Program-made: the position numbers and the translations under genes
Part shown: piece by piece, positions 1-47,187 of the stretch
Numbering within the stretch: position 1 is the first letter of the stretch
How the letters are laid out: each line of letters begins with the position of its first letter
Notes under the pieces: model-generated
Told to the model about the DNA's origin: nothing
Seen by the model: the letters and a program-made list of their open reading frames with translations, nothing else
The model's database searches: none
Source: a bacterium
GTDB lineage: Bacteria > Patescibacteriota > Minisyncoccia > UBA6257 > UBA9933
Direction: 5' to 3'
Assembly: GCA_021796335.1 (NCBI GenBank)
Contig: JAJYHZ010000003.1
Location: 1-54,979, forward strand
DNA length: 54,979 nt

Positions 1-360
1 CAGGGCGGGAATTTATTCTTACGGCCGGCCGGCAACGGAAACTTATGGGCAAATAATTCAATAACTGCCAGTGGTAATGTTTACGGCAATGACATCTGCA
101 CTTTTGGGGGAAAATGCTTGAGTCAGGCCGGAGGCGGGTTAAGTCAAGTAACAACATATAATTTTACTGCAAATGGCTCATATCTGGGTATTCATAAATT
201 CTGCTTTTTAAGTAAAATTCAGTATGGTTGGTATAGTAATATCGGAAATTCTTGGATTGCGGTAAATGGAACATTTAATGGACCATGGTATTTAAGTGTT
301 ACTGGCGCGCATCCTTTAAGTTCCCCTCCGGATCAGGCAAGTGAGATATGTGTTGATTAA
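1..360 (+). CDS. C-terminal part of a fibre/adhesin-like protein (5' end outside window)
   Basis: Frame 1 is open from base 1 (QGGNLFLRPAGNG...GNDICTFGGKCLSQ) to TAA at 358-360; Cys-containing tip domain reminiscent of PilV-type variable C-termini. Confidence 0.65.
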   Translation, partial: QGGNLFLRPAGNGNLWANNSITASGNVYGNDICTFGGKCLSQAGGGLSQVTTYNFTANGSYLGIHKFCFLSKIQYGWYSNIGNSWIAVNGTFNGPWYLSVTGAHPLSSPPDQASEICVD

Positions 361-498
361 ATTTAACTTTTTATCCAAATGTAAGGATTAACACAATCCG
401 GATTCACGGAATTTTATTTATTATTAAATTATAAAAATATAAATTAATAATATAAATTATGGATAACACAATTGCAACCGACAATAAGTCAAAATTAA

Positions 499-1092
499 AT
501 AGAGGAGTTATATAGCGATGGCCAATCTGCTCCGGTTTATGACAATGGAACTAATGTGGGAATCGGAACTACAAACCCCAGTTCCAAACTTGATGTTAAT
601 GGAGATCTTAACGTTAATGGAGCTGCTAGCATCAAACAAAATCTAAATATTGACGGACAAGTTCATGCGAGTGGCGATGTTTGTACGGATGCCGGAGGAG
701 GGAAATGTCTAAGCAATCTTTCCAATTCTTCAAACGTAATCCCAGCCGGCTATTCTTTTGTGCCATTCGGTCAGGAATTGGTTTTATTGAAAAGTAATGC
801 GTATACTCAGGCAGAAAGTAATGGCACGTCTGCTGCCGCGCGAGTTTATAATGGTCAGATTCAAACACGCGTATGGATAAATCAAGCCAATGCCTTTAAC
901 GGAGCATTTGGTTTTAATGGGACAGTATTATGTGATTCCGGGTGGGTGAATGGTTTTAATGCATCCTGCGGCGCTTGGAGGCAGATAACTTATACCACTG
1001 TTTATGGCGCAACTGATATTAATGGGGTTGGCGTGGCTTGGACAAGCAATGGGTTTAATAGTTCATCTGGTTCTAATTATGCATCATGGTAA
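499..1092 (+). CDS. Fibre/adhesin-tip-like module, apparently lacking a proper N-terminus
   Basis: Open frame after TAA at 496-498 reads ...PVYDNGTNVGIGTTNPSSKLDVNG...DVCTDAGGGKCLS; the only candidate start (GTG 556) lies inside the NVGIGT motif. Confidence 0.55.
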   Translation: MEELYSDGQSAPVYDNGTNVGIGTTNPSSKLDVNGDLNVNGAASIKQNLNIDGQVHASGDVCTDAGGGKCLSNLSNSSNVIPAGYSFVPFGQELVLLKSNAYTQAESNGTSAAARVYNGQIQTRVWINQANAFNGAFGFNGTVLCDSGWVNGFNASCGAWRQITYTTVYGATDINGVGVAWTSNGFNSSSGSNYASW

Positions 1093-14222: not shown

Positions 14223-14330
14223 TCCCCGGATTTATGGTGCTACATAAAGCGCATCATAAATCCTTCAATTCCTAACGCGAGACAAGCAGTTGTCTCGCTC
14301 CCTTTCCACTGCACTCATTTCATTCGTTTG

Positions 14331-14696
14331 TGGAGACGGAGGGATTGAACCCTCGTCCAAAAATTTTTCAAAACAATCTCTACAAGCTTGCCTTAATTAG
14401 AATTTAGAATTAAGAAGTAAGAATTAAGGAAAAACTTCAAAATTCTTTTGCCAATTTTGTCTTTGTTGGTTTTGGCATCCAACAAACAAGCTTGATTATA
14501 ACACCCCTTAATTCCGACTCAAGCATTCAGAAGGGATGCCTGTATTAAGCTAAGGCTAATGCAGGAACTGCAGTTTTGTCGGCAGTTATATGTTTTTTGC
14601 CAGATTTATCCCATACTTAAATTTAAGTATGGGGTTGATGAGATGGCGCTCAACTTGCAATTGTTTTGTCCGATTTTTGTCGAGACGTGCGTCCCC
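14331..14696 (-). ncRNA. ssrA: tmRNA; tag (A)ADKTAVPALALA
   Basis: Acceptor GGGGACG/CGUCUCC-A with G3.U wobble; T-arm GAGGGUUCAAUCCCUC; resume context AUAACU-GCC; tag ORF 14583-14545; adjacent to smpB. Confidence 0.95.
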
Positions 14697-34552: not shown

Positions 34553-36070
<1,518 letters not shown>

Positions 36071-36325
36071 ACTATTCAAGTGTCGTTCATCTTGTCGAAG
36101 ACAAGATCGCGGAAGGGCGCGAATAAAACGCGGACTGACGCGGAAAATTAAAAATTCCGCGTAGGTCTGTAATAAGTTTGCGTAAGTCAGCGTTCTCGCC
36201 TTCGACGAGATAGAAGGTGTTGATCGTGGAGCCTTTAAGTCACGATTTCGGGATGACTGAAAAAGTTCTGAAGGTTAAATTATATAGAAATAAGCACAAA
36301 TATTTGCGTTATAAACGCAAAAATA

Positions 36326-36918: not shown

Positions 36919-37488
36919 ATGATTAATCAAAGAAAATCGGACGAAGTTTTGGCAAAGGGATTTACATTACTAGAACTTTTGATAGTTATCGCGATTTTGG
37001 CAATTCTGGCGACCGCAGTTGTTCTGGTTTTGAATCCGGCCCAATATTTGGCTCAGAGCCGAGATACGCAAAGGATGAACGATCTGGATACGGTAAAAAA
37101 TGCGATAAATTTGTATTTGGCTACGGCAACGAGCGTAAGCTGGACGCCGGTTACTTCTTGTGATCTTTCGGCGGTTGCTTCATGTACTAATCCTCCGACT
37201 GGCTGGACAATTGGTAGCGCAAGCACAAGCACGGCTATCAACGGCACGGGTTGGATAAATGTTCCGTTTAACGCATTACCTAACGGTTCTCCGCTGTCCA
37301 AACTTCCGTTGGATCCGGTAAACGGAATATCGGGAGGCGTTACATATTATTACGGATATAAGAGTTCGGCATCGCAAACGTTTAAATTAGTGGGAAAATT
37401 GGAAAGCTCCAAGTACAGTCCGCTTATGTCGACTGACGGAGGAACCGATAATAATTGGTATGAGGTTGGAACAGATATGAGTCTTTAA
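36919..37488 (+). CDS. Type IV pilin (probable major pilin)
   Basis: Class III signal G|FTLLELLIVIAI; RD..R..DL; LP.DP; own terminator. Confidence 0.92.
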   Translation: MINQRKSDEVLAKGFTLLELLIVIAILAILATAVVLVLNPAQYLAQSRDTQRMNDLDTVKNAINLYLATATSVSWTPVTSCDLSAVASCTNPPTGWTIGSASTSTAINGTGWINVPFNALPNGSPLSKLPLDPVNGISGGVTYYYGYKSSASQTFKLVGKLESSKYSPLMSTDGGTDNNWYEVGTDMSL

Positions 37489-37656: not shown

Positions 37657-39369
37657 ATGTTGCAACTTCCGCCGGAAAAACTGAAAGAAATATTATTAAA
37701 TGAAAATCTCGTCAGTTCCGATAAATTCGATGAGATTTTAAAAGAATCGGAAAGGCTGAACCAAAGAATTGAAGATATCTTGGTTTCCAAGGGAATTATT
37801 TCTTTTGACTATCTTTATAATTTGCTCTCAAATTATTTGGGAGTCCCTTTGATTGATCTGGGAGCGAGCGGAGCCATCGATGAATCGGTTTTGAACAAGT
37901 TAAGTCTGGATTTGGCAAGGCAAAAAAAGGTCATTATTTTCAAAAACGAGGGAGACGGGGAAATCGGAGCGGCGATGGAAGATCCGAGCGATTTGAAAAC
38001 CATCGAATTTTTAGAGCGGCATTTAAAAGCAAGAATCAGGCCGTATTTGGCCAAGCCGAGCGACCTGGAAAAAGGTTTCGCGATTTACAACAGGGAATTG
38101 ACGGAAGATTTCAAAAAGATCATCGAGGAAAACATCAAGAATAGCCTTCAGATCAAGAACGAAAAAATAGAACAAGTGGCGATGACCGTCCCTATTGTGG
38201 CAATTGTCGATAATTTCATCTCATACGCCAATTCTTTAAAAGCTTCGGATATTCACATCGAGGTGCTGGATGACACTGTTTTGGTGCGATTTCGAATCGA
38301 TGGGATTCTGCATGAAATAACCAAAATTCCGAAAGAAATCGATGCTTCGATATTGGCGCGTATAAAACTTTTGGCGGGACTCAAAATCGACGAGCATTAC
38401 AAACCGCAGGATGGTCGTTTTAAATTTACGGCGGGAGAAGAAAAAATCGACGTGCGCGTTTCGATAATGCCGACGCTTTACGGTGAGAAAACCGAAATGC
38501 GTTTATTACCGGCTGCGCAAAAACCGCTTTCACTGCAGGAAATTGGGATGCTGGACGATATGGCCGATACCATCAGAGAAAATTTGAAAAAAAGTTTCGG
38601 AATGCTCTTAATTTGCGGCCCGACTGGATCCGGAAAAACGACAACTTTGTATTCGATTTTAAATATAATCAATAAACCGGAGGTCAATATAGTTACTATA
38701 GAAGATCCGATTGAATACAACATCAAATACGTGAATCAAACCCAGATTAATCCGCAAGCCGGAATAACTTTCGCAAACGCGCTTCGTGCGTTCCTGAGGC
38801 AGGATCCGAATATCATCATGGTCGGTGAAATCCGCGACGAAGAAACCGCGGAAATTTCCGTGCATGCCGCTTTGACTGGGCATTTGCTTTTATCAAGCTT
38901 GCACACGAACAATTCCGCCTCGGTCATTCCGAGATTGGTTGATATGAAAGTTCCGCCTTTTTTGATTTCCGCCGTTTTGAATGTGGCGATGGCGCAAAGA
39001 TTGGTTAGAAAAATCTGCCTGAATTGCATTGAATCCGTAACGCCCACTCCGGAAATAATTCAAGGCATACAGAAACAAGCCGAAGAAATGGGATTGTCAA
39101 ATAAAGTCAATCCCCCGAAAATTTTATTCCATGGAAAGGGATGTTCGGTTTGCAACGGAACCGGTTATCAGGGAAGAATCGGGATTTTTGAGATTTTAAG
39201 CGTGGATAACGACGTAAGGGAATTAATAAACAGCCCGGAATTTTCTCTGGATGACTTGGATAATTTGTTAAAAAAGAAGGGAATGACTACAATGTTTGAA
39301 GACGGCTTTCGAAAGGCCGAATTGGGGATGACAACAATCGAAGAAGTGTTCAGGGTTATAAGAGAATAA
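37657..39369 (+). CDS. pilB: Type IV pilus assembly ATPase PilB/GspE
   Basis: ASDIHIE, PQDGR, GPTGSGKTTT, EDPIEY, LRQDP..IMVGEIRD, tetracysteine motif. Confidence 0.95.
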   Translation: MLQLPPEKLKEILLNENLVSSDKFDEILKESERLNQRIEDILVSKGIISFDYLYNLLSNYLGVPLIDLGASGAIDESVLNKLSLDLARQKKVIIFKNEGDGEIGAAMEDPSDLKTIEFLERHLKARIRPYLAKPSDLEKGFAIYNRELTEDFKKIIEENIKNSLQIKNEKIEQVAMTVPIVAIVDNFISYANSLKASDIHIEVLDDTVLVRFRIDGILHEITKIPKEIDASILARIKLLAGLKIDEHYKPQDGRFKFTAGEEKIDVRVSIMPTLYGEKTEMRLLPAAQKPLSLQEIGMLDDMADTIRENLKKSFGMLLICGPTGSGKTTTLYSILNIINKPEVNIVTIEDPIEYNIKYVNQTQINPQAGITFANALRAFLRQDPNIIMVGEIRDEETAEISVHAALTGHLLLSSLHTNNSASVIPRLVDMKVPPFLISAVLNVAMAQRLVRKICLNCIESVTPTPEIIQGIQKQAEEMGLSNKVNPPKILFHGKGCSVCNGTGYQGRIGIFEILSVDNDVRELINSPEFSLDDLDNLLKKKGMTTMFEDGFRKAELGMTTIEEVFRVIRE

Positions 39370-39445: not shown

Positions 39446-40654
39446 ATGAAATTTCACTATATCGCTTCGGAGGCGAATGGAAAAATTAAGGAGGGGGAAA
39501 TGGAGGCAAACGGGGTTGCGGAGGTTCTGGAATTTTTATCGGCGGAAGGACTCAAGCCCGTTTCTTTAAAAAAAGAAGAAGAATCTGTCGTGAAAAAATG
39601 GCATCTTTTTGAATCGTCGATTTCCGCAAGCGACAAGATTTTTCTGACCAAATATTTATCATTAATGTTGAGGATCGGAAGTGATTTATTCAAGGCTGTC
39701 GATATTTTGATTTCAGATTTTGACAAAGAGTCGGTAAGGTCATTTCTGTTTGAAGTCAGGGATAATTTAAGTAAAGGACAGCCGTTTCATGTCGCCTTTG
39801 AAAAATATCCAAAATATTTTTCTCCTGTTTTCGTTAATTTAGTGAGAGCGGGTGAAGTTTCGGGAAGTTTGGATAAAACTTTTGAAAAATTAAGCGAGAC
39901 TTTGCAGAAAGATCAGGAGCTAAGCCATGAGGTCCGAGCAGCTTTGACATACCCGATTTTGCTTGTCATCGTTTCGGTCTTAATAGTATTTTTCATTTCC
40001 ACATTCGCTTTACCGAAGATTGCGAAATTATTCACGGACAGCGGATTCGAACCGCCTCTTTTTTCAAAAATAGTTTTTGCAATCGGTTTATTTTTGAACC
40101 AATATTTCTTAATTATTTTAGCCGTTGTCATCGGCTTGGTTGTCGCTTTCTGGCTTCTGATGACCCAAACAGTCGCTTTTAAAAAAATATTCCAAAGGTT
40201 TATAAGGAAATTGCCCTTGATCGGGCCGTTATTGAAAAAAATCGCTTTGCAGCGATTTGCCGTAACTTTTGCGTCACTGTTGTCTTCTGGCTTGCCGATT
40301 TTGAAATCTTTGGAAATTACCGCCAATGCTGTGGGCGATGAGGAACTGAAGGAATCTTTGATTCGTATCGCCGATGAGGGGATAGCCAAGGGATTGACGA
40401 TAGGAGAAGCTTTCAAAAAAGAACCGGCCTTTCCGAAAATCATATCGAATTTCGTTTCGATTTCGGAAAAAAGCGGGAATCTTTCCGGCATTCTGTTTAC
40501 AATCTCTGATTTTTACGAGATTGAAATAAAATCTTCCATAAAAGTTCTTATTTCTTTTTTGGAGCCGATTCTTTTGTTGTTTATCGGTATTATTGTCGGA
40601 ACGATTGCTTTGGCGGTTATCGTACCGGTTTATCAATTAGTGGGAAAGTTCTAA
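39446..40654 (+). CDS. pilC: Type IV pilus platform protein PilC/GspF
   Basis: GE.SG.L, ALTYP, LEP, three TM regions. Confidence 0.93.
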   Translation: MKFHYIASEANGKIKEGEMEANGVAEVLEFLSAEGLKPVSLKKEEESVVKKWHLFESSISASDKIFLTKYLSLMLRIGSDLFKAVDILISDFDKESVRSFLFEVRDNLSKGQPFHVAFEKYPKYFSPVFVNLVRAGEVSGSLDKTFEKLSETLQKDQELSHEVRAALTYPILLVIVSVLIVFFISTFALPKIAKLFTDSGFEPPLFSKIVFAIGLFLNQYFLIILAVVIGLVVAFWLLMTQTVAFKKIFQRFIRKLPLIGPLLKKIALQRFAVTFASLLSSGLPILKSLEITANAVGDEELKESLIRIADEGIAKGLTIGEAFKKEPAFPKIISNFVSISEKSGNLSGILFTISDFYEIEIKSSIKVLISFLEPILLLFIGIIVGTIALAVIVPVYQLVGKF

Positions 40655-40690: not shown

Positions 40691-41221
40691 ATGCGTGAAA
40701 TCAAATACAATAGAAGAAAAAAACAAGAAAATTTCAATTATTCAAATTTTCAATCTTGCAATTTGAATGGCGGTTTTACCCTGGTTGAAACAGTGCTTGT
40801 GATCGTCATTGTCGCGATTTTGGCGACTTTTGCGAGTTTCAATCTTTACGGTTCTTACCAAAATCAGCAATTGCAAAGCGATGCGGAAGAAATCGCTTAT
40901 GCGCTGCGCGGAGCTAGAGACAATTCCGTAAATCAAAAAAATTCCGACGAGTGGGGCGTTCATTTTGACAATGCCGCCAGCCCGACCGGATTTTTCGCCG
41001 TCTTTGAGGGTGCGAATTACGCTTCCGGAAAAAATATCGTCCGTACGAATTTAAGTTCTTCCGTAATTTTTAAAAATCCGCCCGTAGCCAGTTCGACTGA
41101 TATAATTTTTTCGAAAATGGCCGGATTGCCGTCAAGCGCCGCTTCCATTATAATCTCTTTAAATAATTCCTCATCCACCAAGGCAATAACAGTCAATTCG
41201 AGCGGAGAAATAAGTTATTAA
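40691..41221 (+). CDS. Minor pilin (FimU/GspH-like)
   Basis: G|FTLVETVLVIVIVAIL; WGVHF; ITVNSSG. Confidence 0.85.
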   Translation: MREIKYNRRKKQENFNYSNFQSCNLNGGFTLVETVLVIVIVAILATFASFNLYGSYQNQQLQSDAEEIAYALRGARDNSVNQKNSDEWGVHFDNAASPTGFFAVFEGANYASGKNIVRTNLSSSVIFKNPPVASSTDIIFSKMAGLPSSAASIIISLNNSSSTKAITVNSSGEISY

Positions 41222-41224
41222 AAA

Positions 41225-44200
41225 ATGAAAAATCAAAACGGCCAGTCGTTAATGGAGATTTTAATAGGTCTGACCATCGGGGCCGCCGTAATAGGCGGAG
41301 TTTCCGCTTTAATTGCCGTCAATATGAGAAGTTCTTCCGACGCGAATTTGATACAAACAGCATCTAATCTGGCGCAGGATGAATTGAACTTGGTAAAATC
41401 GTCGGCGCAATCCGATTGGCACACGGTTTACAATCTGCAAAAAGGGGAAAACAGTCCCTATTATTTTTCGACTTCGACGGCAACCACTTCTTCTTCGACA
41501 CCTTATGATTTTTCCGGCGGGACTTTTGCAAGTACGACAATGAGCGGATCAAGCGTCGTGCTTCAGATAGAATCGCCGAACAATTTCGGTTCCGGAGCAG
41601 ACGGACCTCTGACTATCGCGCCTTCCGCGAATTATAATATAAATACGGACCAGAATTCCGATGCTAATAACAGCGATCCGGAAAAAGGAAATCGCACTTG
41701 CGCGGACGGAGCCGTATATGATGTCAATTCTTTGACTTCAAATTCCGCGACTTTGGCTTCAACTCCGGCAGCCGGCTGTCTGGTCCCGAATGATCTGGTT
41801 TTATTGATTAATGAGCAGGGCAACAGCGGTTCAACGGTTAATGTTGGTAATTACGAAATTTTGTCAGTGAATTCAGTTTCGGGTAATGTTGTTAATTTGA
41901 CCCAAAACAAAAAGTACTATGGCAGCGGAAATAGTGATAATATTGGCGATTGGAAATCTATTTCAAGTGACGACGAATCGACTTTAGCGATTAAAACAGA
42001 TGGCACTCTTTGGGCTTGGGGCGGTAACTGGGATGGTGGATTAGGATTAGGATCGGGGTCAAACATTTATTATTATTCACCTGTTCAAGTCGGTACTGAT
42101 AGCCATTGGGAATCAGTTTCATTGGGAGGCACTTACAGCAGTAAAACTGATAATTTCACTTTGGCAATTAAAACAGATGGCACTCTTTGGGCCTGGGGCA
42201 GTAACAATTATGGACAATTAGGCATAGGAAATACCGTTAATCAATTTTCTCCGGTTGAAGTTGGAACGTCTACTGATTGGAAATCGGTTTCAGCGGGAGA
42301 AGGATTTACTTTAGCAATCAAAACAGACGGCACTCTTTGGGCATGGGGAATTAACGATTGGGGTCAGTTGGGATTGGGTAATAATACGAACTACAATACT
42401 CCGCAACAGGTGGGAACGTCCGCAAATTGGGGGTCAATTTCAGCTGGAGAAAGTTCTAATTGGTGGGTAGGACATGGTTTTGCCTTGGCAACTAAAACAG
42501 ATGGCACTCTTTGGGCTTGGGGATACAATGGAAACGGTCAATTAGGTTTGGGGAATACTAATTCCTATTCTACGCCGCAGCAGGTGGGAACATCCACAAA
42601 CTGGAAGTCAATTTCAGCAGGAGATAATTTTTCTTTAGCGATTAAAACCGATGATACTTTATGGGCTTGGGGATTGAATAATACTGGGCAACTAGGTTTA
42701 GATAATCAAATAAATTATACTTCTCCGCAACAAGTAGGTAACGAGATAAACTGGCAATCAGCTTCAGCTGGAGATGCATTTTCATTGGCAATTAAAACAG
42801 ATGGCACTCTTTGGGCTTGGGGAGGAAATGGTTATGGTCAGCTTGGTTTAGGCAATACCGTTAATCAACTTTTGCCGGTCCAAGTCGGGACAAATAATAA
42901 TTGGCAATTTGCTTTGGCGAGTGGAAACGATTTTTATGATAACTATAGCAGTTCTTCAGCTTTGGGCTCTTCTTTTGCAATCCAAGCCGATAATGTTTTA
43001 TGGGTTTGGGGATCAAATAACGTCGGTCAATTGGGTTTGGGTATTCAGGCAAGCCAACAGTTGCCAACCCCTTTGCCTTACCAAAAAATAATTTTGCAAA
43101 GAATTCCGCAATACACTGATGTTACGGTAAATAGCGGAGGCAGTTTGACTGCCAACACCTGGAGTGGAACTGACGGCGGAATTCTGGCGTTTTTTGCCAA
43201 TGGGAAAATAACTATTGCGGGCAATATCAACATGCAGGGAAATGGGTACAGAACTTTTCCCGATACCGGCAGTTCTTATAGTAGCTTCGGTTCAGGAGAA
43301 TCGCGTTCTGGGCCTGGACTTTTAGAGTCGGGCGCCAATAACGACGGCGGTGGCGGCGGTGGGTATTTTTGGGATATTGGTTCTTATGATAGTAACTATT
43401 CCGGCGGGGGAGGTTACGGTATGCCGGGCGCTGACGGATTAGAAGGCAAAGGTGGAAATCAATACGGAAGTCAAACTTTGTCTTCCCAGATATTTTTGGG
43501 AAGCGCCGGCGGAGCTTATGATGGAGGAGGAGAGCCGCCTTGCTATAATACTTATTATTCCGGAGGAAATGGAGGAGGAATAGTTTTAATTAAAGGAAAT
43601 AACATTTCCATAAGCGGAGCAATTAATAATAGCGGAGGCAATGTTAATTGTCCTGATCCCGGAACCGGTTCCGGAGGATCAATTTACTTAGAAGGCAGTT
43701 CAATTGATGTTGGAAATAAAATAGTGACAGCAATAGCGGGGACAGGCGGAACTACCGGAGGAGTGGGCAGAATACATATAAAATACGGGACATTAAATGG
43801 AACCACGAACCCAAGCGCCTTTATGGAACATGGCTTTTATTATCCGGTCGGAACTTATACTTCAAGCATAATTGATACGCTTAAAAATAATTCAACCGCT
43901 GTTTTCAGCTGGAATGTTACTTTAAACGGAAACAGTTCCATTACCATGCAAGCGCGCGGAGCAAACAGTAATTCCGGAGTTTCATCAAAGCAATGGTGCT
44001 CCGTTACAAACGGAGGGGACATCTTAAGTTTGGGCAGTTCCTGCGCCGACCCCAACAGCAGGTACTTCCAGTTCAAGGCCACTTTATACGCTTCAAGCGA
44101 CAGAACGCAAACGCCTTATTTAAATTCGGTCGCCATAAATAATTTTTACCAGTCCAATTTTATTGCCGGAAAAGAATCGGTCAATATGAACGGGACAATT

Positions 44201-44872
44201 TTTACCAGATATTTTTATCTGGATAACGTTAGCAGGAATGATTGCGGTATCGGCGATATTTCAACAAGCAGTCCGACGGGTTGCATTAATATTCAAGGAG
44301 CGGGCCAAAACGATATTGCCAATGATCCTTCAACGCAAAAAATCACGGTTGTTGTCGCGAAAGGGAGTAACGATATAATCCGCCAAAGCCAATACCTTAC
44401 AATGTTCAAGGATTATGTTTTCAAACAGAACGATTGGAGCGGGGGATCCAAACAAGAATATTTCCCGCCGGTCGTTAATAATAAATTCGCCGCTTTTACG
44501 GGAATTAGCGTTTCTACTCCGGGAAATTTAACAATGACCTCGCCGACAACCACCATATCCTATTTAATTTCGTCGGTTTTTTATTCCGGATTGGCCAATT
44601 TGAACAGCATTTTGTGGCAGGGATTGACAAACGGCGGCAGCGTACAGTTCCAGATAGCTTCTGCGAATTCTTCAGCAGGGCCGTGGAATTATCTCGGTCC
44701 TGACGGGACAAATTTAACTTATTACAGCGCCGGTCCGGGAATTTCCATTCAGCTTAATCCGCAATACAACGGTGGAATTTCTTATTTCCGATACAGGATA
44801 ATTTTGAACCCCGATTCGCAGGAGAAAAATTCGCCTTCGGTGAATAGTATCGTTATAAATTACAATATTTAG
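41225..44872 (+). CDS. Giant minor pilin/adhesin with RCC1 beta-propeller and Gly-rich domain
   Basis: G|QSLMEILI prepilin motif; 7 AIKTDGTLWAWG.N..GQLG repeats; Gly-rich region; 1215 aa. Confidence 0.9.
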   Translation: MKNQNGQSLMEILIGLTIGAAVIGGVSALIAVNMRSSSDANLIQTASNLAQDELNLVKSSAQSDWHTVYNLQKGENSPYYFSTSTATTSSSTPYDFSGGTFASTTMSGSSVVLQIESPNNFGSGADGPLTIAPSANYNINTDQNSDANNSDPEKGNRTCADGAVYDVNSLTSNSATLASTPAAGCLVPNDLVLLINEQGNSGSTVNVGNYEILSVNSVSGNVVNLTQNKKYYGSGNSDNIGDWKSISSDDESTLAIKTDGTLWAWGGNWDGGLGLGSGSNIYYYSPVQVGTDSHWESVSLGGTYSSKTDNFTLAIKTDGTLWAWGSNNYGQLGIGNTVNQFSPVEVGTSTDWKSVSAGEGFTLAIKTDGTLWAWGINDWGQLGLGNNTNYNTPQQVGTSANWGSISAGESSNWWVGHGFALATKTDGTLWAWGYNGNGQLGLGNTNSYSTPQQVGTSTNWKSISAGDNFSLAIKTDDTLWAWGLNNTGQLGLDNQINYTSPQQVGNEINWQSASAGDAFSLAIKTDGTLWAWGGNGYGQLGLGNTVNQLLPVQVGTNNNWQFALASGNDFYDNYSSSSALGSSFAIQADNVLWVWGSNNVGQLGLGIQASQQLPTPLPYQKIILQRIPQYTDVTVNSGGSLTANTWSGTDGGILAFFANGKITIAGNINMQGNGYRTFPDTGSSYSSFGSGESRSGPGLLESGANNDGGGGGGYFWDIGSYDSNYSGGGGYGMPGADGLEGKGGNQYGSQTLSSQIFLGSAGGAYDGGGEPPCYNTYYSGGNGGGIVLIKGNNISISGAINNSGGNVNCPDPGTGSGGSIYLEGSSIDVGNKIVTAIAGTGGTTGGVGRIHIKYGTLNGTTNPSAFMEHGFYYPVGTYTSSIIDTLKNNSTAVFSWNVTLNGNSSITMQARGANSNSGVSSKQWCSVTNGGDILSLGSSCADPNSRYFQFKATLYASSDRTQTPYLNSVAINNFYQSNFIAGKESVNMNGTIFTRYFYLDNVSRNDCGIGDISTSSPTGCINIQGAGQNDIANDPSTQKITVVVAKGSNDIIRQSQYLTMFKDYVFKQNDWSGGSKQEYFPPVVNNKFAAFTGISVSTPGNLTMTSPTTTISYLISSVFYSGLANLNSILWQGLTNGGSVQFQIASANSSAGPWNYLGPDGTNLTYYSAGPGISIQLNPQYNGGISYFRYRIILNPDSQEKNSPSVNSIVINYNI
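41948..43075 (+). repeat. Seven intragenic RCC1/BLIP-II repeats
   Basis: Near-identical gcaattaaaacagatggcactctttgggcttgggg cores at about 41987, 42164, 42314, 42488, 42638, 42788 and 42977. Confidence 0.9.
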
Positions 44873-44946: not shown

Positions 44947-45408
44947 ATGAAATTTTCAGAAATTTTTATAATTAAAATCAGGCGGGGATTTGTGGCGTTG
45001 CCGATGATTCTTCTGATAAGCGGGATTGTTTTGGAAATTTCCGTGTCTCTTGCTCTAATAACTTTTTACGTAGTTCAAAACAGCGCGAACGGCAAATATT
45101 CTAATCAAGCCTTGTCCGCGGCGCAAGCGGGTATTGACGACGCATTGATGCAGCTGAAAAGAAATAATAATTTTTCAAATACCAACGGTTATAATTTGAC
45201 TGTTGAAAACAGTTTCGCAACAATCGTGGTTTGCAAGGATTTTTTGTCAACAACGTATGCTCCCTGTTCGGTATCGAATCCGGGAGAAGATGAAATAACT
45301 TCAACCGGGCAATCTTTCGGAAGAAGCAGAAAGATGCGTGCTATTGTTGATGTATCTACAAGTACCGGAGAAATTGATGTAAAATCAATACAGGAGATTT
45401 CGTTGTAA
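44947..45408 (+). CDS. Minor pilin (PilX-like)
   Basis: RG|FVAL without E5; A..AAQAGI.DAL; I.S.G. Confidence 0.75.
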   Translation: MKFSEIFIIKIRRGFVALPMILLISGIVLEISVSLALITFYVVQNSANGKYSNQALSAAQAGIDDALMQLKRNNNFSNTNGYNLTVENSFATIVVCKDFLSTTYAPCSVSNPGEDEITSTGQSFGRSRKMRAIVDVSTSTGEIDVKSIQEISL

Positions 45409-45542
45409 ATCATGAATTCCGCGTATAGTTTTCCCCGTAACGGGATTATGAGGCGGGAGATGAATTGAAATTAAATTTAACTTCGTAATTGAATTGAATA
45501 AAAAATTTTCTTATTTGATTCAAAAAATGAAGTTATGTGCGG

Positions 45543-47042
45543 ATGAAATTCAAAACTTTTTTAAATTTAATAAATCCTCAGCCTGAAATCGGCGGGTTTG
45601 AAATAAATGATTTTGGAATAAAATTTATCGAGTTAAGGGGGAAAAAGACAAGTCTTGCGTCAATTCAATTGCCGCCGGGGATTATCGAGGAGGGGAAAAT
45701 TAAGGATAAAGATAAATTTTTTGAAATTATCTCCGAATTCCGGAATAAAATAACAAAGAGTAAGCGGAAAAAAATACACATAGTCGCCAGTATTTCAGAT
45801 ACCAATATTTATACGGAATCCTTTGTTCTCCCGCGATCAGTCGGTTCAAAACTTAACGAAGCCGCTGATTTGAACTTGCGGATGATCTCCCCTATTGATT
45901 TTGACGCTTCTTATCATGACTGGCAGCTGGTGGGGGAGCGGCTGGTAAACGGAACAAGTCAGCTGGAAATTTTCGGCGCTTTTATTCCGAAACAGGCAGT
46001 GGACGATTTTGAAGAGATTTTACTTAAGGCTGGATTTGAGGTTGTCGCTTTCGAATTTCCGACTTATGCTTTGACGCGGACGATAATGGAAATCGGGGAA
46101 GGATTTGCGAAAGAAAAAAATTACCTTTTGGTGAAAATCGGATCAGACAATCTGTCCTTTGGTTTGATTAAAAACGGCAATCTTAATTTTCTGCATTTCG
46201 TTTCCTGGAAATCCGTTTACGGAGAAGAGAAAAAAATACCTTTGCAAAGTTTTGAGAATTTGATTGTTGATGAAGTTAAAAAAGTTTTGAAATTTCAGGA
46301 GACTCATTCGACTACGGCAATCGACGGGCTGATTTTATTCTCGCCAAATTTAATAAAAGAGCTTTCAAAAATAATTTCAGATAATTTTCCCAATCTGCCG
46401 TTGATGATGCCGAATATAAACAAATTTAAAGATTTGGCTCCGGCGTGGTTCGGCGTTTTAGGTTCGGCCTTAAGAGGCGCTTTTTTCGCCGATACCTCAA
46501 GCAAGATGATTAATTTGGCGGGTTCGGAAACTACCAAGAGGTTTGACACTTATCAAATCTTAAGTTTTATCAAAATTTGGAGGAGTTTGATCGTGATATT
46601 TTTTGGATTGGTTTTGATTTTTTATGCGGGGCTGGACGTTTTTCTTTATAAATACGCGAGCCAACTGGCCGATCAGAATCAAAATGTAAAAAATCCGGAA
46701 GTTCAGATGTTGGGCCAGCTGCAGAAAGCAGCCGAGGATTTCAATCAAAAAGTGGATAATTATTATCAAATCCGCCAAAATGAGCTTAATTGGTCTTCAT
46801 TCTTCCAGAATGTGGAGAGTTTGGCGGGCGCTGATATAACAATAAAACGCATTTATGTGCAATCGAAAAATTCGCCGGTATTACTATTAGGAGAAGCATC
46901 GAATAATGACGCGATAATTGCTTTTAAAAAAGCGTTGGAGAGCGACAATCATTTCTCAAATATTAATTTTGAACTTTCCAGTATTGTTCCTGACGGGAAA
47001 AACTACGATTTCAGTATAAGTTTTTCCATTATTAAAATTTAA
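45543..47042 (+). CDS. PilM-like domain fused to TM and PilN-like domain
   Basis: G.EI.D..IK, LP.G.I.EG.I.D (PilM-like); TM at about aa 345-370; C-terminal L.G.A......F...L....F..I (PilN-like). Confidence 0.75.
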   Translation: MKFKTFLNLINPQPEIGGFEINDFGIKFIELRGKKTSLASIQLPPGIIEEGKIKDKDKFFEIISEFRNKITKSKRKKIHIVASISDTNIYTESFVLPRSVGSKLNEAADLNLRMISPIDFDASYHDWQLVGERLVNGTSQLEIFGAFIPKQAVDDFEEILLKAGFEVVAFEFPTYALTRTIMEIGEGFAKEKNYLLVKIGSDNLSFGLIKNGNLNFLHFVSWKSVYGEEKKIPLQSFENLIVDEVKKVLKFQETHSTTAIDGLILFSPNLIKELSKIISDNFPNLPLMMPNINKFKDLAPAWFGVLGSALRGAFFADTSSKMINLAGSETTKRFDTYQILSFIKIWRSLIVIFFGLVLIFYAGLDVFLYKYASQLADQNQNVKNPEVQMLGQLQKAAEDFNQKVDNYYQIRQNELNWSSFFQNVESLAGADITIKRIYVQSKNSPVLLLGEASNNDAIIAFKKALESDNHFSNINFELSSIVPDGKNYDFSISFSIIKI

Positions 47043-47105: not shown

Positions 47106-47115
47106 TTTGATTATT

Positions 47116-47187
47116 GCGGGCGTCGTATAGTGGCTATTATGCTAGCCTTCCAAGCTGGAGACGAGGGTTCGATTCCCTTCGCCCGCT
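47116..47187 (+). tRNA. tRNA-Gly (anticodon TCC), CCA not encoded
   Basis: Acceptor gcgggcg/cgcccgc; anticodon arm ctagc-cttccaa-gctgg; T-arm gagggttcgattccctt. Confidence 0.96.

Follow-up and report, generated by a model that had tools for sequence, protein, structure and literature searches.

A Patescibacteriota prepilin with predicted nested domain insertions around an RCC1 propeller

Modular pilins are established, and their additional module is usually grafted onto the pilin's end (PMC8179133). In Streptococcus sanguinis, PilB (vWA) and PilC (lectin) carry modules that are grafted via a short loop, and both are proposed to be tip adhesins (Raynaud et al. 2021, PMC8179133). Insertion into the pilin sheet is represented by ComZ and GspK (PMC8179133). 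Here we describe a prepilin of 1215 amino acids (aa), encoded at 41225..44872 in a stretch of 54,979 nt from a genome of the Patescibacteriota (assembly GCA_021796335.1, contig JAJYHZ010000003.1, positions 1 to 54,979; hereafter the window). All coordinates refer to the plus strand unless stated otherwise. According to our analysis a seven-bladed RCC1 beta-propeller would sit in a loop of a module B, a beta-barrel/Gly-rich beta-helix resembling AgmC_N. B would in turn sit in a loop of a jelly roll A and A in a loop of the sheet of a GspI/PilV-class pilin, with a second, uninterrupted jelly roll following the pilin. The feature is real and its nesting is well supported. The whole reading, i.e. 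three nested insertions together with putative display at the pilus tip and binding of a host ligand, appears quite probable to us. It is new as a variant of the modular-pilin theme.

As in S. sanguinis PilB and PilC, a pilin module carries functional modules that are not part of the pilus, and LamG/lectin-type modules also occur in relatives of the prepilin. Unlike in PilB and PilC, the modules would lie inside the sheet, nested three deep, and an extra C-terminal jelly roll is present. ComZ of Thermus thermophilus (beta-solenoid) and GspK of type II secretion (alpha-domain) are described in the cited text as single insertions with no nesting and belong to other pilin classes, whereas the fold of the prepilin matches GspI and not GspK. 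Within the Patescibacteria, the minor pilin PilX2 of Nanosynbacter lyticus TM7x bears a hepta-bladed RCC1 propeller. When PilX2 was deleted, the share of host cells bound fell from ~10.6% to 4.6% (PMC12206443). PilX1 of the same organism has a jelly-roll-like domain (PMC12206443, PMC11623550). The prepilin can be likened to both by description, not by sequence, as a minor pilin of Patescibacteria with RCC1 propeller and jelly roll. The extra domains of PilX2 and PilX1 are described as C-terminal, and nesting is not reported in the cited parts of these papers. A PilD signal is said not to be predicted for either of them, whereas the prepilin has the Gly/Glu+5 motif.

A further comparison is offered by the PilY1/PilC tip adhesins and the beta-strand that is added to PilK (Ellison et al. 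2026, PMC13533445). Common to both would be a beta-propeller at the pilus tip and a fold that is completed by a strand in cis or in trans. Unlike the prepilin, PilY1 is not itself a pilin, and the strand that it donates to the minor pilin PilK is its last one. In relatives with a split jelly roll (see below) it is the pilin tail that is predicted to donate two strands, namely to the jelly roll of a secreted partner. Neither a nested insertion in a pilin nor a jelly roll split between pilin and partner was found in the titles and abstract openings of the literature searched; Dataset S1 of PMC8179133 may list related architectures.

Pilin module and terminal jelly roll

The structure of the prepilin was predicted for aa 16-1215 (model 1) from an alignment of 47 rows that held no RCC1 rows, with a mean predicted local distance difference test (pLDDT) of 61.7 and a predicted template modelling score (pTM) of 0.52. 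The helix, both halves of B, the C-half of the pilin and the terminal domain are confident, and RCC1 stayed unfolded because the alignment had no rows there. Fold matches were derived with VIA-align run against 48,161 chains; Foldseek on model 1 returned weak matches (best E 2.6e-4).

The N-half of the pilin (aa 1-84, 41225..41476) consists of a class III leader, a long alpha-1 helix and the first beta-strand, as judged from N_methyl, the family alignment and the model. As for the signal features, aa 6 is Gly and aa 11, at +5 of the mature protein, is Glu, and a hydrophobic stretch extends up to ~aa 33. Pfam PF07963 (N_methyl) matches aa 1-26 (E 2.3e-4, 21.0 bits at a cut-off of 21.2), and the cut-off is passed by family members from G002, G019, G021 and G048. 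The alpha-1 helix corresponds to residues 2-54 of model 1 (pLDDT 68-93). The N-half is followed, as read from the sequence, by a Ser/Thr-rich linker (aa 85-94, 41477..41506, pLDDT <50) which marks the pilin insertion site (site 1). The pilin resumes after a short linker (aa 974-1066, 44144..44422) with the remaining strands of the GspI-type sheet, indicated by the family alignment from aa 988 onwards and by fold matches.

Contiguous forms of this interrupted module exist. A search for shorter relatives of aa 868-1215 yielded 34 proteins, and the pilin halves (aa 19-90 and 988-1215) align to 33 family pilins. P0199 and P0200, both of 335 aa, run without interruption from the helix and the first strand through the 'TRYFY' and 'DPSTQK' strands to the terminal domain; two anchor motifs that are ~40 aa apart there are separated by 929 aa in the 1215-aa prepilin. 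Moreover, GspI-type folds (GspI, EpsI, XcpV) align with 80-82 residues across the range 21..1047 of model 1 at Z 8.6-8.9, and each of these matches takes in nearly the whole PDB chain. The best are 5bw0_B (Z 8.9, root mean square deviation (rmsd) 2.1, 81/89 residues), 2ret_A (Z 8.7) and 3ci0_I (Z 8.6). By modelled fold and gene order the module is thus best assigned to the GspI/PilV class; it is not called a PilV equivalog, because its PilV score is below the cut-off.

The same pilin site is used repeatedly in relatives, by LamG (P0198, P0225, L023, L035, L036), DUF1554 (P0214) or RCC1 (G002). An insertion of A in the pilin loop just after the first beta-strand of the sheet is well supported. 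Carrying both the N_methyl motif and RCC1, the prepilin belongs to the modular pilins in the sense of Raynaud et al. (2021), whose definition asks for a prepilin motif at the N-terminus and one or more domains without a pilus-specific role.

The protein ends with a C-terminal jelly roll (aa 1067-1215 plus stop codon, 44423..44872), for which a profile, fold matches and a pLDDT of 85-96 agree. A terminal-domain profile, built from six contiguous terminal domains, matches aa 1068-1213 with E 1e-40. The best fold match overall is the podophage tail nozzle protein 9nwi_Y (Z 14.3, rmsd 2.2, 135 aligned residues), and further matches are Eph ligand-binding domains and CBM6/CBM36 at Z 9-10 (7ay3_A Z 9.7, 2cdo_A Z 9.2). 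The model thus suggests a beta-sandwich jelly roll of CBM6/CBM36-like fold, a likeness that says nothing on sugar binding. We also observed that in the nozzle chains 9nwi_Y, 8jov_A and 7z47_G the 121-137 aligned residues reach from ~2 up to 508, 570 and 1001, respectively. The podophage nozzle jelly roll may also be discontinuous, because the aligned residues span such long chain ranges.

Module B, the RCC1 propeller and jelly roll A

Module B starts at aa 118-241 (41576..41947) with the first strands of the beta-helix and a small beta-barrel; this part aligns to contiguous B modules in P0123, P0125, P0122 and others and has a pLDDT of mostly 77-97. It resumes at aa 619-867 (43079..43825) with the rest of the barrel and the Gly-rich beta-helix (pLDDT mostly 85-97), as indicated by NCBIfam AgmC_N and alignments. 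In between lies a seven-repeat RCC1 beta-propeller (aa 242-618, 41948..43078), which is seen by Pfam and as a gap relative to contiguous B modules. PF00415 is found seven times within ~aa 242-624 (E 3.2e-71), and the RCC1-like domain PF25390 scores 258.1 bits at a cut-off of 150. In the whole genome, the prepilin gives the sole RCC1 match.

That the propeller interrupts B becomes apparent from relatives. Searching with aa 619-1215 found proteins having an uninterrupted module B. In the Dojkabacteria prepilin P0123 a conserved 'KYYG.G' segment runs directly into a 'QRVPNYTDVTV' segment; in the 1215-aa prepilin the two are 373 aa apart with RCC1 between them, the gap lying between projected aa 246 and 620. 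The loop is closed (gap <=15 aa) in 193 of 198 paired B modules from 145 proteins and exceeds 50 aa in the other five, i.e. the 1215-aa prepilin (RCC1), P0249 and P0258 (both Kelch according to Pfam), P0257 and P0262. The gaps of the latter two contain no Pfam domain; here an adjacent tandem module was probably paired by mistake. An insert of ~100 aa occurs at the same B loop in P0135, and prepilin P0182 has a Kelch propeller in a different loop of B. Module B itself is widespread and was found in 2572 representative proteins at E 0.001 or better.

The folds point in the same direction. Beta-helices of two-partner secretion resemble module B at the fold level only: FHA (1rwr, Z 10.0, 117 aligned residues) and HpmA (4w8q, Z 8.6, 138 aligned residues) align across 108..859 of model 1. 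A small barrel (9n71_B, Z 8.4) spans 146..642 in model 1 vs a contiguous 121..223 in the model of P0122. With respect to sequence, aa 626-845 match positions 140-377 of AgmC_N (NF047640, 412 positions) with 52.1 bits. Module B is no AgmC equivalog, since this score is far below the cut-off of 275 bits; the contiguous module B of P0123 (positions 27-402, 119.5 bits) is also under it. The start of module B alone gave no NCBIfam match.

Jelly roll A is the level between pilin and B. Its start (aa 95-117, 41507..41575) comprises one or two inner jelly-roll strands and is placed by alignment to aa 95-115 of P0122. It resumes at aa 868-973 (43826..44143), which aligns to aa 505-598 of P0122. Positions 44-150 of the terminal-domain profile match aa 868-972 (E 1.6e-7), and the resumed part therefore represents the C-part of a jelly roll of the terminal type. 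Judged from the alignment to P0122, the start of A corresponds to the strands after the DWSGG-type motif and not to the motif itself. The break point in A is the loop that holds an NHL propeller in P0204-6 and W-rich repeats in P0201-3.

P0122 is a secreted protein of 1832 aa, encoded on contig 2 of the same genome, in which the A start, B and the resumed A occur in the same order with no RCC1. The order of A and B is also kept in P0124, again lacking RCC1. Identity to the 1215-aa prepilin amounts to 43-51% for P0122 (51% over aa 96-241, from A start to B start, and 43% for the resumed B) and 39-41% for P0124, and the prepilin aligns to P0122 across both A/B junctions. We modelled aa 30-720 of P0122 with AlphaFold (model 2) from a 43-row alignment with a mean pLDDT of 81.2 and a pTM of 0.73. 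Jelly-roll matches with 100-109 aligned residues (9nwi_Y Z 8.8, EphA2 Z 7.9, CBM61 Z 7.5) span 70..571 of this model, around a beta-helix at 94..471. This suggests that the inner jelly roll wraps around B in the paralogue.

P0122 (L001), P0124, P0238, P0239 and P0259 are secreted, FN3-rich proteins of ~1850-2020 aa that can be read as an outer jelly roll around an inner jelly roll around B. In P0249 and P0258 the B loop additionally holds a Kelch propeller. The N-part of the outer jelly roll is unplaced in the P0122 model (pLDDT ~30), and the proposed outer jelly roll is unconfirmed.

Several points speak against our interpretation. The N_methyl score is 0.2 bits short of its cut-off and Gln follows the predicted cleavage site. 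NCBIfam TIGR02523 (PilV) matches aa 4-90 with 22 bits at a cut-off of 52.2, and AgmC_N also falls far short of its own. We deduced discontinuity from the range of residues that a fold match covers and not from coordinates; for the pilin, B and the inner A, these ranges are the only evidence taken from the matches, since their Z of 7-10 lies in a range that the tool calls common and that alone does not establish fold identity. For the start of A, a likeness to the N-part of the terminal domain is not significant, two profile searches both giving negative bit scores. In the prepilin's own model the A start, the resumed A and RCC1 all have a pLDDT <50, so that B in A is indicated indirectly for the 1215-aa prepilin, by the model of the paralogue, homology and one profile match. 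Concerning function, PilX2 stems from another class of Patescibacteria.

The data on A could accordingly be explained by two levels only, with RCC1 in B and the block in the pilin, the A start being a linker and A a truncated jelly roll made of its C-part. The missing N-part profile match and the low pLDDT of both A parts in model 1 fit such an arrangement. However, the A start is conserved in P0122 and P0124, the jelly-roll matches in the P0122 model begin at residue 70 and thus upstream of B, and in the split form of the domain the C-part is predicted to need two strands of the pilin tail. We therefore regard two levels as improbable. The same holds to a much greater degree for colinear domains arranged like beads on a string, none of them discontinuous. 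Such an arrangement is what one would expect by default of a surface protein with several domains, and we found no other support for it. Contiguous homologues exist for the pilin, for A with B and for B, and PDB folds that form one domain are spread over 500-1000 residues when aligned, which leaves colinearity a very remote explanation.

Three nested levels thus remain our preferred reading, and the initial annotation, which had proposed them, is largely supported. Its domain boundaries all hold to within a few residues according to profiles, family alignments and B-loop pairing. It expected that contiguous homologues of the joined halves exist, which is true for the pilin (P0199/P0200), for B (193/198) and for A with B lacking RCC1 (P0122, P0124). 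With contiguous forms at every level and sites reused in relatives, the view that each module is inserted in a loop of the previous one is corroborated, and the simple colinear order named as its refutation is contradicted. Discontinuous domains were predicted as anticipated for the pilin (21..1047) and the beta-helix (108..859); A is not seen in the prepilin's own model but in that of P0122 (70..571). Likewise, the resemblance of the terminal domain to A is borne out for aa 868-972, but the similarity between DFSGG and DWSGG segments was not significant in the two profile searches.

Insertion sites and split jelly rolls in relatives

The pilin family is matched in 56 of 61 genomes (60 relatives and the genome itself). 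We fetched 29 loci of relatives and sorted them by type. Plain pilins of 323-374 codons make up seven of the 29. Four have an insert at the pilin site (site 1), including G019 and G049 with two LamG each, G039 with one LamG and the closest relative G002, in which an RCC1 propeller of another subtype is located directly at the pilin site with neither A nor B. The reading frame of the G002 pilin is broken by a stretch of unavailable sequence. One locus shows W-rich repeats fused at the jelly-roll site that is used by B (site 2). In two loci the penultimate and the last strand of the jelly roll are separated by an insert (site 3), either W-rich repeats or a propeller-like repeat domain with no Pfam match, and one has an insert at a further jelly-roll loop (site 4). 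The remaining 14 have a jelly roll split across two genes.

Two of these architectures deserve a closer description. The pilin at L037:2653-4755 (G048) has 701 codons, and its last two jelly-roll strands flank a repeat domain of ~350 aa. On visual inspection this domain resembles a propeller, and Pfam finds the prepilin motif only. One and the same W-rich repeat module, which belongs to no Pfam family, occupies three different jelly-roll loops in different genomes, namely in L032/P0201-3, L013 and L024.

The split loci comprise 11 clear adjacent pairs (L014, L015, L016, L018, L020, L022 and L025-L029; e.g. L015:2365-3042:- with L015:1498-2355:-) and three variants whose partners are larger or lie further away. 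The clear pairs consist of a pilin of ~210-245 aa that ends in the two N-part strands and, in the next gene, a protein with a Sec-type signal peptide, W-rich repeats and the jelly roll's C-part. Complex prediction for one pair gave an interaction prediction score from aligned errors (ipSAE) of 0.79 (runs 0.81, 0.79 and 0.78) vs 0.00 for the best control. The mark applied is reached by 58 of 80 solved complexes and by 2 of 110 mismatched pairs. The runs share >=93% of contacts, i.e. at least that fraction, and the partner has a pLDDT of at least 89. In the predicted complex, the pilin tail pairs with the first and the last strand of the partner's jelly roll. Since each partner corresponds to one half of a domain that other genomes have in fused form, passing the mark may reflect likeness to the fused domain rather than binding. 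The prediction nevertheless supports, at the level of models, that N-part and C-part form one domain. In 11 of 29 loci a separate secreted protein forms the variable part and would dock on the pilin tail.

Judged from the sequences, diversification occurs by insertion, as the initial annotation had suggested, and at four or more loops, but not by insertion alone given the loci with a separate secreted protein. We tentatively put forward a broader concept, on which we are nearly evenly divided with a slight leaning to doubt: the jelly roll might be a general plug-and-socket display scaffold. Its loops would take up whole domains in cis over three or four levels (the 1215-aa prepilin, P0249/P0258). 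Where the domain is cut at the same loop, as in many relatives, into a two-strand pilin tail and a secreted cargo protein, the cargo would complete the fold in trans, loading the tip with exchangeable secreted adhesins by two-strand complementation. If true, the polarity would be the reverse of the strand addition between PilY1 and PilK.

The loci of relatives also bear on the question whether the ORF might have arisen as a chimera of the assembly or as a fused pseudogene, for which we found no positive support beyond the fact that the protein cluster is seen on one contig. All 1215 codons are open under table 11, the interrupted domains resume in frame and in the right order, and intact variants occupy the same locus in relatives. 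An artefact of this kind is hardly conceivable to us, still less so than colinear domains.

Pilus operon and putative role at the tip

The genome comprises 752,648 bp in 3 contigs and is 97.3% complete. The gene of the prepilin is part of an operon in the order pilB, pilC, GspH-like minor pilin, 1215-aa prepilin, 153-aa protein and pilMN, which matches the order in the relative G002. The pilB-type ATPase is encoded at 37657-39369 (Pfam T2SSE, E 1.2e-119) and the pilC-type platform protein at 39446-40654 (Pfam T2SSF, E 1.4e-48). Directly upstream of the prepilin gene lies a GspH/FimU-like minor pilin of 176 aa (40691..41221) with Pfam N_methyl and an NCBIfam GspH match under the cut-off (E 7.5e-10). 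Downstream follow the 153-aa protein with a hydrophobic N-terminus (44947-45408), which has a very weak match to NCBIfam GspK (E 0.053), and a PilM-PilN fusion (45537-47042) recognised by Pfam PilM_2 (E 2.7e-7) and a weak PilN match. A pilin of 189 aa 5' of pilB (36919..37488, Pfam N_methyl, E 3.3e-7) is a candidate major pilin. A prepilin peptidase of the PilD type is encoded on contig 1 (PF01478 over its cut-off). Those homologues that carry a name belong to Parcubacteria, Harrisonbacteria, Liptonbacteria and Dojkabacteria, in line with a Patescibacteria/CPR origin. The homologue search with the whole protein was dominated by RCC1 proteins, and matches other than the protein itself covered just 25-37% of the query.

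Elsewhere in the window, a complete 16S rRNA gene is located just 5' of the pilus operon (34553-36073) and a tmRNA gene on the minus strand (14328-14696). The gatB ORF, listed with a TTG start, overlaps at its 5' end with a tRNA at 47114-47187 (Rfam, 60.8 bits); because of this overlap the true start of gatB is probably a later ATG.

Concerning function, the pilin module would put the protein in the tip complex, as is the case for GspI/PilV-class subunits, and A, B and the propeller would then be borne at the pilus tip. A ligand on the surface of the host cell may be bound by the propeller and perhaps by the jelly rolls too, and swapping the inserted modules would alter what the pilus recognises. 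An adhesin role is a reasonable inference by analogy, mainly with PilX2 of N. lyticus. The architecture could also be right and the protein still not be an adhesin for host recognition, serving instead to bind the own envelope, to capture DNA or nutrients or merely to prime pilus assembly. Such a role is compatible with the beta-solenoid inserted in the pilin ComZ, which can serve DNA binding (PMC8179133), and with the priming of assembly by GspI-class pilins (PMC13533445). On the other hand, the modules at the same sites in relatives are commonly ligand-binding families (LamG, NHL, Kelch, RCC1), efficient host binding requires the RCC1 pilin PilX2, and the competence of T4P-2 pilin mutants is described as like wild type throughout (both PMC11623550, PMC12206443). 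A function other than host recognition seems rather unlikely to us on these grounds, and a putative tip adhesin remains the favoured interpretation.

The lifestyle of Patescibacteria is one of attachment to other microbes, and a part in locating and binding the host is ascribed to their type IV pili (PMC12206443). In this context the prepilin and its relatives indicate that one conserved tip pilin can present very different modules, i.e. RCC1, LamG, NHL, Kelch-type domains and repeats. These modules would be inserted into a small number of permissive loops or be borne by a separate docking protein, and the termini that the pilin fold needs would keep their position. This may represent a testable route to the diversification of host range in organisms that are hard to culture, as well as a natural precedent for engineered domain display on pili.

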